From NCBI GenBank assembly GCA_017631635.1, contig JAGBSX010000022.1:18659-82658 (forward strand): DNA of 64,000 bases. Direction: 5' to 3'. A model generated the notes under the pieces. That model was not told the DNA's origin. It saw only the letters and a program-made list of their open reading frames with translations, and ran no database searches. Below, in pieces: positions 19,047 through 26,552 of the stretch. Position numbers and translations under genes: made by a program. The stretch is from Clostridia bacterium (GTDB lineage: Bacteria; Bacillota; Clostridia; Christensenellales; RUG350). Every line of letters begins with the position of its first letter. The first letter of the stretch is position 1.

Positions 19047-19152
19047 AAAAAAAGCACCACTGTGGTGCTTGCAGCACGGAAGCCCGCATCCTCTTCCCTT
19101 TAAGCGGCCAATTACTTGTAAAGATCTAGAGTCGATACAAGAGTAATGCTAC
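19047..19152 (-). ncRNA. Candidate small RNA 1 (family not recognised)
   Basis: Bounded by the perfect consensus promoter at 19159-19187 and an intrinsic terminator, AGCACCA-CAG-TGGTGCT (19053-19069) plus U7. About 105 nt with an internal 10-bp bulged hairpin. No ORF with a credible SD. Confidence 0.5.
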
Positions 19153-19156
19153 TGTA

Positions 19157-19197
19157 ATATTATATGCAAATATTTATGATTTGTCAACAGGTTTTTT
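19157..19197. repeat. 41-bp direct repeat, copy 1 (carries the sRNA1 promoter)
   Basis: ATATTATATGCAAATATTTATGATTTGTCAA(C/T)AGGTTTTTT is identical to 19407-19447 except for one base. Confidence 0.9.
19159..19187 (-). promoter_or_regulatory. Perfect consensus sigma70 promoter (TTGACA-17-TATAAT) for sRNA1
   Basis: Minus strand reads TTGACAaatcataaatatttgcaTATAAT, with an A-rich UP-like tract upstream. Confidence 0.7.
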
Positions 19198-19299
19198 ATA
19201 AAAAACTAATAAACAAACAAATTTGTTACGTCGTCGAGGCTGTTGACGGCACAAGCAAGAAAATAATGCCTATAATGACTGCATATAAAGCAAAAGTAA

Positions 19300-19402: not shown

Positions 19403-19406
19403 ACAT

Positions 19407-19447
19407 ATATTATATGCAAATATTTATGATTTGTCAATAGGTTTTTT
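19407..19447. repeat. 41-bp direct repeat, copy 2 (carries the sRNA2 promoter)
   Basis: See copy 1. The two copies are 250 bp apart. Confidence 0.9.
19409..19437 (-). promoter_or_regulatory. Perfect consensus sigma70 promoter (TTGACA-17-TATAAT) for sRNA2
   Basis: Sequence identical to the sRNA1 promoter. Confidence 0.7.
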
Positions 19448-19506
19448 TAATTTTAATAAAAAAAGGTACATAACGACCACAAGGCAACGGTATATGTCTT
19501 TCTTGA

Positions 19507-19537: not shown

Positions 19538-19741
19538 ATGAGAGATTGGGATGAAAACAAGCATCCAAGAAACGCACTTGGAGAATTTACAAACAAAAGC
19601 ATTGCAGAATTAAAATCTGAAATCATAGAAATTATTCCCTATAAAAAAGAGCCGATTATACTTGGAGGTGTAATATGGAAGAGAAAGATAAAAACAAAAA
19701 AATACCCTATAGATTTACTTGTCCTATACCGGTGGAAGTAG
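19538..19741 (+). CDS. Hypothetical 67-aa protein with an N-terminal WDENKHPRNALGEF motif
   Basis: AGGAGG lies 10 nt upstream. The 3' 67 nt overlap the next ORF in the -1 frame. The motif resembles the KHPR(D/N)xxGxF motif that I recall from phage and conjugative-element proteins (unverified). Confidence 0.45.
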   Translation: MRDWDENKHPRNALGEFTNKSIAELKSEIIEIIPYKKEPIILGGVIWKRKIKTKKYPIDLLVLYRWK

Positions 19742-19869
19742 TAGGATACGTTGAGATAAGTGAAGAAGATAGAAAAAAGTATAGAGAACAACATATAAAA
19801 TCTCAAAAATATTTTGGTATAGAAACCAATCCTGAAAATATTACAGAAATAGACTACGACAACTTATAA
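19675..19869 (+). CDS. Hypothetical 64-aa protein, paralog 1 (PYRFTCP...EISEEDRKKYREQHIK...NPENITEIDYDNL)
   Basis: SD GGAGGTG 4 nt upstream. 64 aa, about 75% identical to ORF 19953. Confidence 0.6.
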   Translation: MEEKDKNKKIPYRFTCPIPVEVVGYVEISEEDRKKYREQHIKSQKYFGIETNPENITEIDYDNL

Positions 19870-19952: not shown

Positions 19953-20147
19953 ATGAAAAAAAGTGATAAGAAAAACAAACTACCCTATAGATTTACTTGT
20001 CCTATGCCAGGCAGGTCTGTAGGACATGAAGAGATAAGCGAAGAAGATAGAAAAAAGTATAGAGAACAACATATAAAAACGCTTAAACATTTTGGAATAG
20101 AAATCAATCCTGAAAATATTACAGAAATAGACTACGACAACTTATAA
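19953..20147 (+). CDS. Hypothetical 64-aa protein, paralog 2
   Basis: SD AAGAGG upstream. Tandem duplicate of 19675-19869 (278-bp period). The C-terminal 17 aa are identical; a variable patch follows the CP motif. Confidence 0.65.
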   Translation: MKKSDKKNKLPYRFTCPMPGRSVGHEEISEEDRKKYREQHIKTLKHFGIEINPENITEIDYDNL

Positions 20148-20567: not shown

Positions 20568-21602
20568 TCAAAACTGTGTTGTGATTCCAAGCTCTGCAAT
20601 CAGTTTTTTAGCTGTTTCAAAGCGTTCCAAGTAGTCTCCGGAGACACAATGGTATGTAATATTGTTTTGCGCGAGTGCTTGTTTGATTTGCTGACTGTAC
20701 CTTTCTCTGTCCTCATGAATTTTCTTATTTCTTGTACCGTCTTGGATAAATTCCACATCCGGCTCAAGAAACAAAACCAAATCCCACTGTGTCATATCGC
20801 TGATTGCAGTAGCCATTTTTTCACATATTTCAATTTCTTTGGGATTTGTCAAAATCAACCGAGAGTAAAATAACGTTGTAACTGCATCGGTATCCACGAA
20901 CAAGACGCGATTGCTTTTTTTGGCAGCATCCATGATCTGCAAGCGTTGACGGAGTAGATTCTCATATAAATCCTCCGCCATCATAAAATCCTCACCGCCG
21001 GCATAATCCGATGTGATTCGCCCGTATTCCGCCACATAGTTAGTATTATAGGCAAGTGCTAAATTTTGAACAAGAGTGCTTTTTCCGGTGCTTTCTCCGC
21101 CTACGACCAAAACCTTTCGTGCATAATAATCCTTACAAACATCCGGTATATAGTCCCAATGCGCGCTCGCCCAAGTACGTATTTCCGTTGAACTGATCGG
21201 AACCTCTTCTCGATCAAAATAGATGACTTGGCTTTCCGGACAGTATAGGGATTCAAATCGATTTGTTCCCAAATAGTCGCTTCCGCAAAATACTACATCA
21301 ATGTGTTTACCAATGGCACTCTTAATGTCCATGGCACCCTTTTCCCAATAATAGTCGGTATTATATTCTTCTTTCGATACAGCTTTGTCTTCGATCAAAA
21401 GAATTTTGACATTTGGTAGATGTCTCGTACTGTTAAGAATCCAACGATATCGAAGCTCTTTAGGTGTTGATTCGCGTCCTTCGCACCAACTGATCACAAT
21501 ATACAGTTCTTCGCATACGGATGCAGCTTTAATGATATCGGATATATGCCCTAAATGAAGGGGATCAAAGGATCCTCCGTACATACCTGTTTTATATAGC
21601 AT
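20568..21602 (-). CDS. nadR: NadR-type bifunctional NMN adenylyltransferase / ribosylnicotinamide kinase (no HTH domain)
   Basis: 344 aa. N-terminal GGSFDPLHLGH nucleotidyltransferase motif, central P-loop GGESTGKST. Overlaps pnuC by 11 nt. Confidence 0.8.
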   Translation of the reverse strand: MLYKTGMYGGSFDPLHLGHISDIIKAASVCEELYIVISWCEGRESTPKELRYRWILNSTRHLPNVKILLIEDKAVSKEEYNTDYYWEKGAMDIKSAIGKHIDVVFCGSDYLGTNRFESLYCPESQVIYFDREEVPISSTEIRTWASAHWDYIPDVCKDYYARKVLVVGGESTGKSTLVQNLALAYNTNYVAEYGRITSDYAGGEDFMMAEDLYENLLRQRLQIMDAAKKSNRVLFVDTDAVTTLFYSRLILTNPKEIEICEKMATAISDMTQWDLVLFLEPDVEFIQDGTRNKKIHEDRERYSQQIKQALAQNNITYHCVSGDYLERFETAKKLIAELGITTQF

Positions 21603-22284
21603 TTTTCTGACGAGCCTCCTTTTCCCATTTGATTAACATGATAATAGCATTACCCAAGTATACTCCCCACATCAGAAGTGTGGCAATATTGTCACTTCCG
21701 TTGCGGAAATCACACCACCACATATATATGCTGAAAACATCCACCGCAATCCAGATCCACCACTGCTCTGCATACATACGAATAGAGATAACCATAGCAA
21801 CCACAGATGAAACTGTAGTAAAGGCATCAACGAATGGCATTACGTCCCCAATGTGTTTAAGAAGCAATCCATACAAATATGTTGCTATAGCTATTGTAAC
21901 AATTAACAATGCAATGCCATACGGACGCATCTTGCGTTTTTCGACCTCACCGGTTTCTGTATTGATATGCTTGCTCCATACGATGAGACCTATAAATTGC
22001 ATAGGAATATAAAAAAACACATTTAGCATTGTTTCTCCATATAGTGCTGCTCGGTAGGAAATAATTGCGTATAACACACAATTCACAAACCCGAACAGAT
22101 AGGCTGATAGTTTTCCTTTTCCGGTGCAGACAACGCATGCAACACCTGTTAGGGAAGAAATAATACCCATTAATGAATCTCCCCAATAGATAGACAGCCC
22201 AGTAATTGTTGCGCAGGTCAGAATCAACCAAAAAACCTCAAAAGGTTTCCAACCGGTTAACTCGTTTTTGATTAATTTTCGCAT
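21592..22284 (-). CDS. pnuC: Nicotinamide riboside transporter PnuC
   Basis: 230 aa, 7-8 TM helices, PnuC-like N-terminal pattern (TGWKPFE...W...CVV...GK...). Operon with nadR. Confidence 0.85.
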   Translation of the reverse strand: MRKLIKNELTGWKPFEVFWLILTCATITGLSIYWGDSLMGIISSLTGVACVVCTGKGKLSAYLFGFVNCVLYAIISYRAALYGETMLNVFFYIPMQFIGLIVWSKHINTETGEVEKRKMRPYGIALLIVTIAIATYLYGLLLKHIGDVMPFVDAFTTVSSVVAMVISIRMYAEQWWIWIAVDVFSIYMWWCDFRNGSDNIATLLMWGVYLGNAIIMLIKWEKEARQKNAI

Positions 22285-22305
22285 AAAAAATCACCCTCTT
22301 TTTAC

Positions 22306-22334
22306 ATTATAGCACAAGAGCTAACTAAAATCAA
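22306..22334 (-). promoter_or_regulatory. Predicted promoter of pnuC-nadR
   Basis: Minus strand reads TTGATT-17 nt-TGcTATAAT (extended -10). The 5' UTR is short, with SD AGAGGGTGA. Confidence 0.65.
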
Positions 22335-22481
22335 GGTATAGCCTTGTATATCACCAACACGGAGTGTTGTATATCATCATTGCGAAAGCGAATCCAGCCC
22401 CAAAGGTGCTGATGATATCCACGCTAAAGCGTGATGATATCCACGACTGCCTCGTGATGATATGCCATCGCTTTCGCAATG
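22332..22481. repeat. Array of dissimilar short hairpins joined by conserved ATATCA(C/T) / ATGATAT(C/G) linkers (array H1)
   Basis: Hairpins at 22332-46, 22355-69, 22395-411, 22420-33 and 22442-56. Linkers: TATATCAC, TATATCAT, ATGATATC x2, ATGATATG. A 14-bp long-range inverted repeat (22378-22391 / 22468-22481) encloses three of the hairpins. Confidence 0.6.
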
Positions 22482-22483
22482 GA

Positions 22484-22522
22484 TAAAAAAAATACTGCAG
22501 AAAATATATCCTTTTCTGCAGT
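22484..22522 (-). terminator. Rho-independent terminator of ssrA
   Basis: 11-bp stem ACTGCAGAAAA/TTTTCTGCAGT (22494-22504/22512-22522), 7-nt loop, U-run on the minus strand. Confidence 0.8.
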
Positions 22523-22528
22523 CTTTTT

Positions 22529-22884
22529 TGGTGGAGGTGAGGAGAGTCGAACTCCCGTTCAATACAATAGCCGATAATCCTTCTACATACTTAGTCGGTA
22601 TATTGTCATCTTACTACTATCGCCTACCGACAGGCTATAATAGTCGTTATCCCGTATTACCCTATATCCCTACGGGAGTCAGGTATAGAGTTGTCTGCAT
22701 AGTTGATGCCGAGTCTAATACTGCAGAAGATACTAGGTCGACATCGCTGACTTAGGCAGCGAAAGCAAATGAATTGCTGTTAGTTTTGTTTGCGTTTAAA
22801 TTTAATTTTTCGTTTTGACAGAGCCGAAACCTCTGGTATGCTTCTATCACCCTCTACTTGTACTGTCGAATCCGGTACACCCCC
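22529..22884 (-). ncRNA. ssrA: tmRNA (transfer-messenger RNA, SsrA)
   Basis: 5' end is GGGGGUGUACCGGAUUCGACAG. 3' end is GGGAGUUCGACUCUCCUCACCUCCACCA (T-arm plus acceptor with encoded CCA). The G3:U pair is an alanine identity element. Internal tag ORF at 22793-22752: GCA AAC AAA ACU AAC AGC AAU UCA UUU GCU UUC GCU GCC UAA. Confidence 0.9.
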
Positions 22885-26140: not shown

Positions 26141-26188
26141 AGATAAAAAGCCACGCTATAGCCGAGTCCCTACAAGGGATTCGGCAAC

Positions 26189-26410
26189 TAAATAAATCCT
26201 AAACGGATTTGTGATATTCGTCTAACGACGAGTGATATTGCCTATCGGCAGTGTTGCCGAGCAACTTTAGTTGCGAACGCCAACTGCCTTGGCAGTTATA
26301 TTTGCCTATGGCAAGTTAAGGATTTATTTAATATAACTTTGGCGTTAGCCAAAATATAACGCAAGATTTGTCTTGCATATCACTTTTAGCCACAGGGCTA
26401 AAAATATCAC
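26189..26410. repeat. Array of dissimilar short hairpins joined by GTGATAT / ATATAAC / ATATCAC linkers (array H2)
   Basis: Hairpins at 26218-31, 26239-50, 26261-74, 26284-95, 26302-14, 26338-53, 26361-76 and 26384-403. Linkers: GTGATAT x2 (26211, 26232), ATATAAC x2 (26331, 26354), ATATCAC x2 (26377, 26404). A 12-bp long-range inverted repeat (26189-26200 / 26319-26330) encloses the first five. Confidence 0.6.
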
Positions 26411-26552
26411 TATATTAACTTAATCTTTTGTGGATAAGAAAAGCCCACCATATTTCGCATATAAGCGAAGTATAGTGGGCTACACTTTTGTTATAAACTA
26501 AAAATCCCTTATAGTGAACATCCTATTGCTGCTTTTTTCGTGCGACGAAATG

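Follow-up and report, generated by a model that had tools for sequence, protein, structure and literature searches.

The closest described relative of the structure treated here is Gut-1 (RF01706 in Rfam), whose consensus, CAaUGAAAU-hp-GUGAAAU-hp-GUGAAAU-hp-UGAAAU (hp, hairpin), contains three variable hairpins. Its publication (Weinberg et al. 2010, PMC2864571) gives no function, only the occurrence in human gut metagenomes, and mentions neither a mirror half nor a long-range stem, nor does it record a CCA/terminator junction, a promoter or a linked gene. The subject of the present analysis is H1, an array of short hairpins joined by conserved linkers in a 64,000-nucleotide stretch of a Clostridia bacterium genome (contig JAGBSX010000022.1 of assembly GCA_017631635.1; this whole stretch is called the window in the following). 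H1 is located between ssrA, the gene of the transfer-messenger RNA (tmRNA), and pnuC, and it is almost certainly one member of a family. For that family, an even chance is given to the reading that its members are mobile or accretive terminator-array-promoter cassettes, in which hairpin-linker units would be displayed in single-stranded form to a sequence-specific factor. The hairpin-linker idea as such is already named by Gut-1, and the repetitive extragenic palindromes (REP) with the bacterial interspersed mosaic elements (BIME), BOX and Correia are functional analogues. What appears to be undescribed so far is the architecture as a whole, together with its CCA junction, its promoter and its gene linkage; in the literature on tRNA-downstream hairpins, on REP/RAYT in Clostridia, on Gut-1 and on PF05635/TIGR02436, no account of such an architecture was found.

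In an earlier inspection of the window by eye of a model, termed the sequence-only reading below, five hairpins, conserved linkers, a 14-bp inverted repeat and a period of 22-23 nt had been described, all of which were found again at the same coordinates. The extent then assigned, 22332-22481, is right for the array, but the element also takes in a terminator (to 22528) and a promoter (to 22306). Its parts, together with the gene on its left boundary, are the following.

22306-22334, minus strand: outward sigma-70-type promoter (promoter scan, 10/12 matches with TG)
22332-22379, plus strand: promoter-proximal half, with linkers ATATCACCA (22348-22356) and ATATCATCA (22371-22379) and the hairpins at 22332-22346 and 22355-22369
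22332-22346: hairpin CAAGG-TATAG-CCTTG (sequence reading)
22355-22369: hairpin CAACAC-GGA-GTGTTG (sequence reading)
22378-22391: long-range stem, central arm, CATTGCGAAAGCGA on the plus strand
22395-22411: hairpin CAGCCCC-AAA-GGTGCTG, one mismatch
22420-22433: hairpin CACGC-TAAA-GCGTG (sequence reading)
22442-22456: hairpin CACGA-CTGCC-TCGTG (sequence reading)
22455-22463, 22432-22440 and 22410-22418, minus strand: terminator-proximal half, three linkers ATATCATCA, layout as in the family
22465-22484, minus strand: ATCC and terminal hairpin HPf, CCATTGCGAAAGCGATGG on the minus strand (from the sequence)
22468-22481: long-range stem, terminator-proximal arm, TCGCTTTCGCAATG on the plus strand
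22485-22528: two-way intrinsic terminator module, stem 22494-22522 (terminator scan positive on both strands)
22529-22884, minus strand: ssrA (tmRNA) gene (ARAGORN; Rfam tmRNA, 151.9 bits)

The left boundary of the element is the encoded CCA 3' end of ssrA at 22529. In ssrA sense, the CCA is followed by the terminator AAAAAG-ACTGCAGAAAAGG..CTGCAGT-ATTTTTTTT. The 5' arm and loop of HPf constitute one strand of the long-range stem, CATTGCGAAAGCGA being the exact reverse complement of TCGCTTTCGCAATG over 14 bp, and this stem is present in the minimum free energy and centroid folds of both strands. The enclosing stem proposed before is perfect as a pairing, but its 3' arm takes part in a local hairpin, CCATCGC-TTTC-GCAATGG, as well. 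Linkers are 8-9 nt long, with the 9-nt core ATATCAYCA on the plus strand at 22348 and 22371 and on the minus strand at 22410, 22432 and 22455, spaced by 23, 22 and 23 nt. In the terminator-proximal half (22410-22463) they alternate with the hairpins at 22442-22456, 22420-22433 and 22395-22411, the third of which extends below 22410. H1 is a 2+3 variant of the usual 3+3 array; a CAATTCC..GGAATTG hairpin unit is absent from its promoter-proximal half, and compared with the canonical order two hairpins of the terminator-proximal half are swapped. The array lies between the ssrA terminator and the pnuC promoter, and its first hairpin overlaps the -35 region, just as noted in the sequence-only reading: the promoter, a strong one, has a -35 TTGATT (22334..22329), made by the last stem and a truncated linker at the element end, which a spacer of 17 bp separates from a TG-extended -10 TATAAT with its end at 22306.

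A chance origin of this pattern is excluded. A pattern search against shuffled controls yielded 13 copies of ATATCAYCA in the window versus 2.3 expected (maximum of 6 in 100 shuffles of the window), five of the 13 falling within 116 bp. As single-stranded DNA (ssDNA), H1 folds with z = -8.3 on the plus and -8.4 on the minus strand, none of 200 shuffles being as stable; as RNA with flanks, the values are z = -9.2 (+) and -6.7 (-). The 64 kb contain one H1-type array and one array of a sister type, H2. Two Logan contigs of the window's own species (L004, L005) have their start within H1, namely in the central arm of the long-range stem, so that short-read assemblies of this species are fragmented by the repeat too.

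Relatives of H1 were sampled by scanning one genome per species for the pattern ATATCATCA-N12-15-ATATCATCA. At least 60 two-orientation arrays were obtained, 39 with exactly three forward and three reverse linkers, and the carriers are nearly all metagenome-assembled genomes of Clostridia (Acutalibacteraceae, Oscillospiraceae/Ruminococcaceae, Christensenellaceae, 'Eubacteriales' and ruminant-gut Clostridia). Read in the sense of the upstream gene, the left part of the element is composed of CCA, A5-7, a long hairpin and T6-9, then ATCC, HPf and y; the middle of 3 x (ATATCATCA + hairpin), an A/T spacer and an arm S; and the right part of 3 x (inverse linker TGATGATAT + hairpin) followed by GAT(TT). 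The position of the ATCC-hairpin directly behind the T-run is kept in 44 members, and the linkers are near-invariant, with 277/345 exact 9-mers. The stems, which had been taken as unrelated and the inserts as freely varying, are neither: all begin with CA and end with TG, and each of those in H1 matches a slot-specific hairpin type across the family.

The modules of the element are also found in other combinations. The window terminator, CTGCAGAAAAGGATATATTTTCTGCAG, recurs almost unchanged behind other genes (L115, L102) and is accompanied there by different HPf types; the terminator is therefore part of the repeated unit, and the modules reassort. Tandem amplification is seen in unidirectional arrays of 5-9 units (L107 827-1030, L097 7669-7800, L094 2180-2520, L012 4800-5100), which reuse few hairpin types, for instance in the order A B C A B D C B A or, in some, ABAB, and in which units with the variant linker TATGGAATC are mixed with ATATCATCA units.

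A co-oriented tRNA or tmRNA 3' end precedes 30 of 60 arrays, mostly 54-66 nt before the first linker, and a tRNA or tmRNA in opposite orientation precedes none of the 60. The stable-RNA genes concerned comprise 14 tRNA species and tmRNA, to which Rfam adds one further tmRNA and the end of an rRNA-tRNA operon. Among 44 array loci with a readable left side, the A-run starts directly after CCA in 33, compared with CCA and at least four A in 9 of 91 distinct array-free tmRNA flanks. Arrays behind protein genes are still preceded by a short pseudo-3'-end (...CCA or ...CA). A-run, hairpin and T-run together form one long perfect palindrome and thus a two-way terminator. As a background, 120 metagenomic loci sharing the last 24 nt of the window tmRNA were used, a 24-mer common to very diverse Firmicutes; in none of them were three or more linkers present within 420 nt downstream. 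H1 is not a one-off structure tied to ssrA or pnuC, given its absence near close PnuC relatives and in these 120 other tmRNA flanks and the presence of such arrays after 14 kinds of tRNA.

Nearly all matches of the pattern in viral contigs are coding Asp-Asp-Ile repeats with 3n spacing, and just one (L146) resembles a true array; a canonical array had no blastn match in plasmid and phage collections. When canonical arrays and H1 were compared with Rfam 15 at relaxed thresholds, tmRNA and tRNA were matched, together with spurious snoRNA and miRNA models owing to the UGAUGA in the arrays, and no family model was found.

The evidence that base pairing is selected for, or else maintained by templating, comes from 31 canonical family members, with stem partners swapped between loci as control. 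Each hairpin slot is occupied by 21-25 distinct sequences, and perfect stems have a mean length of 5.4-6.2 bp versus 2.4-4.0 bp after swapping, which bears out the earlier view that structure is kept and not plainly duplicated. Arm S can pair with the 5' arm and loop of HPf, whose reverse complement it is over 8-13 nt (mean 11.1 versus 3.2 when swapped), and the long-range stem exists in nine covarying versions, such as ATTGCGAAAG/CTTTCGCAAT, AAGCCGACAG/CTGTCGGCTT and ATTACGGAGT/ACTCCGTAAT. Three copies (L040, L077 and that of the window) have a damaged local HPf hairpin but an intact long-range pairing; it is therefore the long-range stem that is kept, and a single-stranded state spanning about 110 nt is required.

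As to the kind of nucleic acid, the stem pairs comprise 1097 Watson-Crick, 8 G-T, 5 A-C and 15 other pairs, that is, about 98% Watson-Crick, and G-U, at 0.7%, is in no excess over A-C. For an RNA under selection on one strand, many G-U and few A-C pairs are expected. Loops on the strand reading ATATCATCA are mostly GNA triloops closed by C-G, or GNNA, and d(C-GNA-G) mini-hairpins are unusually stable in DNA. Of the alternatives left by the sequence-only reading, RNA or cruciform/ssDNA, the latter thus fits better, the two strands folding equally well. Watson-Crick-only stems, equal folding of the strands, GNA loops, the strong terminator ahead of the array and the lack of an inward promoter all favor a constraint at the DNA level or on two strands; it would act on DNA, or equally on both strands, rather than on a classical RNA. 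The distance between linkers varies from 19 to 49 bp and shows no helical phasing; the linkers are equidistant only with the hairpins extruded. Cooperative binding to phased B-DNA sites was rejected for lack of phasing, and a rod of stacked four-way junctions with the linkers pairing together was rejected likewise, a complementary change in the mirror partner accompanying only 1 of 51 variant linkers and unidirectional arrays being in existence; the linkers would rather be recognized by their sequence.

The sister array emerged from a generic hairpin-cluster scan.

26160-26420, plus strand: H2, between convergent genes

H2 has the linkers GTGATAT (twice) and then ATATAAC/ATATCAC (four times), its own terminal hairpin, AAATCC-TAAAC-GGATTT, and its own long-range arm, GTTAAGGATTTATTT; its ssDNA fold has z = -8.5. 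With the Rfam model of Gut-1, it scores 42.4 bits (26185-26259; E 4.9e-7), which is below the gathering score of 50 bits, while H1 has no match to the model at E<=10. In the sequence-only reading no named RNA motif had been recognized in the architecture; it does resemble one, Gut-1, in design, although H1 itself has no match. By the same search, Gut-1 itself was detected in L093 (68.8 bits) and L062 (1755-1831; 74 bits). In L093 (225-381) the match is directly behind a tRNA terminator, a mirror half matches on the other strand with 28 bits, and the array has a long-range arm of its own; since the mirror half matches the opposite strand, the published three-hairpin Gut-1 is half of a mirror array and hence incomplete. 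Gut-1-type arrays are located behind tRNA/tmRNA terminators in L093 and L036, in the latter downstream of its ATATCATCA array, and both have the two mirror halves and the long-range arm; the match in L062 is likewise one half of such a mirror-symmetric array. From Gut-1 over H2 to H1 the linkers form the series UGAAAU, UGAUAU, UGAUGAUAU; relative to HPf, the linkers of the H1 type run the opposite way to those of Gut-1 and H2.

On the promoter side of H1 lies the following gene, outside the element, with a nadR-like gene downstream of it.

21592-22284, minus strand: pnuC coding sequence, nicotinamide riboside/NMN transporter (Pfam NMN_transporter, 2.4e-47)

Contigs encoding an identical PnuC carry an identical array. 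At the locus of a 97% identical PnuC (L006) the array is absent and the upstream region wholly different, with homology starting only at the ribosome-binding site; with PnuC of 83% identity (L008/L009) the ssrA-pnuC neighborhood is kept and the array absent, and it is absent too at relatives of 87% and 80% identity. In the PnuC relatives lacking the array, the intergenic DNA is too diverged to fix breakpoints. Close PnuC relatives (L006 1-324, L007 1-128) have another promoter and a leader of about 60-75 nt with a CATGAA...CATG hairpin, and leaders of relatives without array matched no Rfam family. At 22285-22330 of the window, promoter and leader of the relatives are replaced by the cassette promoter and a 21-nt leader. 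The evidence indicates that the cassette supplies the ssrA terminator and the pnuC-nadR promoter in the window, which is nearly certain, in place of the relatives' promoter and leader. Since the array is upstream of the -35 region, H1 is outside the pnuC leader, and a riboswitch or other 5' leader regulator of pnuC was rejected for this position, for the absence at orthologue loci and for the missing Rfam match. It is nearly certain that H1 is not a regulator of pnuC of the riboswitch or operator sort. Further along in the same neighborhood, there are two copies of a 45-nt repeat, its length being approximate (ttatatgcaaatatttatgatttgtcaa.aggtttttt; 19150-19200, 19405-19450), and downstream of nadR two tandem paralogous open reading frames (ORFs) of about 64 aa (..KIPYRFTCP..EEDRKKYREQHIK..ITEIDYDNL; 19675-19869 and 19953-20147) matched no Pfam family.

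An outward promoter is carried by about 30% of the arrays. A TTGATT-16/18-TAnnnT arrangement at the element end is found in 12 of 42 arrays, the window included, versus 5.9% at random positions, and the region between TTGATT and the -10 is similar in several genomes. The same promoter arrangement is present at all arrays linked to a gene for a four-helix-bundle protein, which is driven by this promoter and is directly downstream of 10-11 of about 60 arrays (about 17%), its start codon at a fixed distance after the array. The protein has 113-119 aa, belongs to Pfam 23S_rRNA_IVP (PF05635) and NCBIfam TIGR02436 and is Avd-like; in diversity-generating retroelements, the Avd-like family provides a reverse transcriptase cofactor. 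At these loci, which follow tmRNA and tRNA-Val, -Tyr, -Ser, -Arg and -Leu, homology extends from the A-run to the stop codon of the gene and then ends. The protein family was also sampled separately from the DNA pattern: among 3383 homologues, identity is 86% or more in every one of the best 120 clusters, and the full cassette was directly upstream in each of the three clusters whose upstream DNA was examined (L372 2001-2348, L382 2001-2342, L387 2001-2345). Many metagenome contigs begin 85-140 nt upstream of this gene, which means that assemblies break within the array. In PADLOC the protein has no match. In L372 (1-3076) a large serine recombinase lies ahead of the module of array and four-helix-bundle gene. 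Behind the module comes an AAA_15/AAA_21 ATPase of 243 aa with AriA/PtuA/GajA-like PADLOC matches, its start codon overlapping the stop codon before it, and this context may be a defense island. The other genes downstream of arrays are mutually unrelated, the 87 ORFs compared with Pfam having matched 114 families.

Signs of recombination are found at several loci, nine of which have a downstream repeat of the final 16 nt of the tRNA. In L046, L052, L056, L123, L125 and L089 this repeat is situated 164-213 nt after the gene, with A-run, terminator and array behind it. In L077 it is 1097 nt downstream and brackets terminator, array, four-helix-bundle gene and one more ORF, a layout similar to that of L044, where it is at 1348 nt. 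Single genes with an array on either side occur in L046, L117 and L123. These repeat and flanking-array patterns are compatible with insertion at tRNA 3' ends, be it site-specific or accretive in another way. Both L077 and L044 have the tRNA 3' repeats of tRNA islands but no integrase, and none was found in the neighborhood of the window either. In L046 (3000-4290, reverse strand) a mazG-like gene is flanked by two almost perfect copies of a segment made up of terminator, array and the next 110 nt or so, and the region beyond the array contains repeated TCGTTCAATT motifs. Another small element was noticed at tRNA/tmRNA 3' flanks (L309, after tmRNA; L056, L034, L077, L111). It has an inverted copy of the T-arm/3' end (16/16 identical in L077), about 125 nt with a CAGTCCGG..GGACTG+T-run hairpin and a direct tRNA 3' copy ending in CCA, after which A-run and terminator follow again; in L309 it is present in tandem.

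The cassette begins right after the encoded CCA with the two-way terminator hairpin clamped by A-run and T-run, followed by ATCC and the terminal hairpin, three ATATCATCA-hairpin units, the arm pairing back and the three inverse-linker TGATGATAT units, and a large subset ends in the TTGATT that serves as -35 of an outward promoter. In the favored scenario, it would spread to the 3' flanks of stable-RNA genes rather than regulate pnuC. In a single-stranded state, the hairpins would be extruded and the G-free linkers shown to a sequence-specific factor, and the cassette's own terminator and promoter would make its insertion harmless to the flanking genes. Several observations weigh against this scenario. 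No four-helix-bundle gene was found in the window, and the 4.5 kb downstream of its array contain no repeat of the last 16 nt of the tmRNA, even with as many as 3 mismatches. No transposase, integrase or HUH nuclease was found adjoining arrays, nor a recombinase or transposase among the 25 listed of the 114 Pfam families from downstream ORFs. No target-site duplication is definable, because the flanks are T-runs on both sides, and the loci compared include no clean filled/empty pair of near-identical genomes. The absolute orientation rule and the near-invariant linkers would equally suit a host function, and the discoverers of Gut-1 judged their motif likely to be an RNA (Weinberg et al. 2010, PMC2864571). 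Moreover, the scan demanded two perfect copies of ATATCATCA, by which the sample is biased to well-kept copies, and the family counts rest on 8-kb loci and so give no copy number per genome.

The most serious competitor, if a rather unlikely one, is a structured RNA of the Gut-1 kind, either a stand-alone small RNA ending at the two-way terminator or a two-way insulator on read-through transcripts, in which Rho, an RNase or another factor of termination or decay would be loaded on the G-free, UC-containing linkers that the hairpins keep single-stranded. If every hairpin had to fold in transcripts of either strand, the Watson-Crick-only stems and the mirror symmetry would be accounted for, and the covariation of the hairpins and of the stem with its 110-nt range requires a single-stranded form in any case. 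Such an RNA would also be in line with the design shared with Gut-1, itself rated likely RNA, with the 42.4 bits of H2 against that model and with H2 being probably transcribed as a 3' untranslated region, as the hairpin preceding it has no T-run. One strand of each half is G-free with UC in all three linker families (ATATCATCA, ATATCAC, ATTTCAT), the adjoining terminator is symmetric, with A-run and T-run, and a position behind the most strongly transcribed genes and before the next promoter suits an insulator. However, H1-type arrays start straight after a strong T-run terminator with no promoter between, and the promoter scan of the window found no sigma-70-like promoter leading into the array from the pnuC side. 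G-U pairs are no commoner than A-C, unlike in known RNA families, the GNA triloops are typical of DNA and not of RNA, and the linker polarity relative to the terminal hairpin is opposite to that of Gut-1 and H2. A host insulator would, in addition, not be expected to be missing from a relative with a 97% identical PnuC; among close relatives the element is present patchily.

Reading the array as duplex DNA, one would have six 9-bp sites in a 3+3 inverted order, either arm sites of an integrase or excisionase by which small islands are inserted at tRNA 3' ends or operators of the four-helix-bundle protein at the adjoining promoter. This is improbable. It would account for the near-invariant 9-mers in inverted triplets, for the distance of 55-200 bp from tRNA 3' ends, where integrases act, for the tRNA 3'-end repeats in nine loci, which bracket array segments in L077 and L044, and for the promoter that follows the array closely, which in part of the loci is the one of the four-helix-bundle gene. 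It leaves unexplained the compensated palindromic spacers and the kept long-range complement of 11-14 nt; the spacing is unphased, unidirectional arrays reach 9 units, 14 tRNA targets would need many integrase specificities, and no integrase is among the 25 listed Pfam families at array loci. Equally improbable is a further reading, according to which the arrays would be recognition structures of a new class of very small mobile elements homing to the mature CCA 3' end of stable-RNA genes with their own terminator and promoter. Homing would proceed either by reverse transcription, tRNA-primed or with end-to-end template switching, of an RNA whose end is set by the two-way terminator, with subsequent recombination into the tRNA gene, or by a structure-specific single-strand DNA recombinase acting in trans; the Avd-like four-helix-bundle protein, the sole gene product travelling with the element, would be a cofactor, and Gut-1 and the H2-type arrays would be sister lineages with other linkers. 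Finally, a pnuC-specific cis-regulator, such as an NAD-related riboswitch, an attenuator or an operator of the NiaR/NadR type, has next to no probability. It draws on the array being directly upstream of pnuC-nadR, but the array is outside the pnuC mRNA, is lacking at the orthologue loci of all four identities (97%, 87%, 83% and 80%), has no Rfam match, and precedes unrelated genes elsewhere in the same form (87 ORFs, 114 Pfam families).

Should the cassette reading be true, a large share of gut Clostridia would carry a compact unannotated cassette by which stable-RNA genes are terminated and insulated and the genes downstream supplied with promoters, and the copy in the window would control the vitamin-B3 salvage genes pnuC-nadR. 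The orphan Gut-1 motif can now, as it could not before, be placed in its genomic context and given its full architecture, and the 23S rRNA intervening-sequence/four-helix-bundle family is tied to a defined nucleic-acid structure beside stable-RNA genes. From a practical point of view, the repeat visibly breaks metagenome assemblies, several contigs starting inside an array. The family further offers a natural example of variable hairpins used to display a constant single-stranded motif.

Concerning known systems, the architecture had not been recognized as REP/BIME, CRISPR or attC in the sequence-only reading. A CRISPR array was rejected because the H1 repeats are 9 nt long and in two orientations and the 'spacers' are palindromes. 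Likenesses to a DnaA box, a Fur box and the phiX174/pC194 nick site (CTTG|ATA) were set aside as weak or conjectural. Compared with integron attC sites, structure is likewise kept while sequence varies, the sites are probably read as folded single strands, and single genes between successive arrays (L046, L117, L123) are cassette-like; in contrast to attC, however, there are no R''/L''/L'/R' boxes (RYYYAAC...GTTRRRY), no extrahelical bases and no integron integrase nearby, and H1-type arrays are 5' of the gene, together with a promoter. Like arm-type sites of tyrosine integrases (attP/attL), the H1 type has repeated motifs of about 9-10 bp that point both ways and lie no more than 200 bp from a tRNA 3' end and, in some loci, direct repeats of the tRNA 3' end; it differs by palindromic and covarying spacers, variable spacing, many tRNA targets and the lack of an integrase.

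Closer parallels are found among small intergenic repeats. Correia elements (CREE/NEMIS), promoter-bearing miniature inverted-repeat transposable elements (MITEs) and pneumococcal BOX are, like the H1 type, intergenic modules of about 150-250 bp with mirror-symmetric ends, which create outward promoters and terminators and thereby rewire neighboring genes; BOX (A-Bn-C) has a variable number of internal modules as well. Terminal inverted repeats as in Correia-like MITEs are present, both H1-type ends reading ATC-hairpin-(y)ATATCATCA inwards, albeit imperfectly, with a long-range arm on just one side. For the H1 type no TA or other target duplication is definable, and no cognate insertion sequence was seen in the array loci; it differs from all three by one fixed orientation, one kind of target and internal units made of hairpin and linker. 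The REP/BIME of enterobacteria and pseudomonads, which are mobilized by RAYT, are similarly extragenic, usually just after the 3' ends of transcription units, and consist of short palindromes of alternating orientation that conserved linkers join into mosaic clusters of variable unit number, with a probable action as ssDNA hairpins. H1 hairpins, however, start with CA and end with TG without a GTAG/CGTC tag; it is the stems that are conserved in REPs, whereas in the H1 type the linkers are constant and the stems vary. The H1 type is, furthermore, strictly at the CCA end of stable-RNA genes and has a built-in terminator and promoter, and no RAYT gene was seen in the 8-kb array loci. Gut-1, finally, differs in that the published motif has just three hairpins on one strand. 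The two share the gut Clostridia habitat and the short covarying hairpins of variable stem on a constant purine-rich linker (GUGAAAU in Gut-1, GUGAUAU in H2, UGAUGAUAU in H1), and H1, with its repeated hp-UGAUGAUAU-hp, has the at least three covarying hairpins with a constant short linker by which Gut-1 is characterized.

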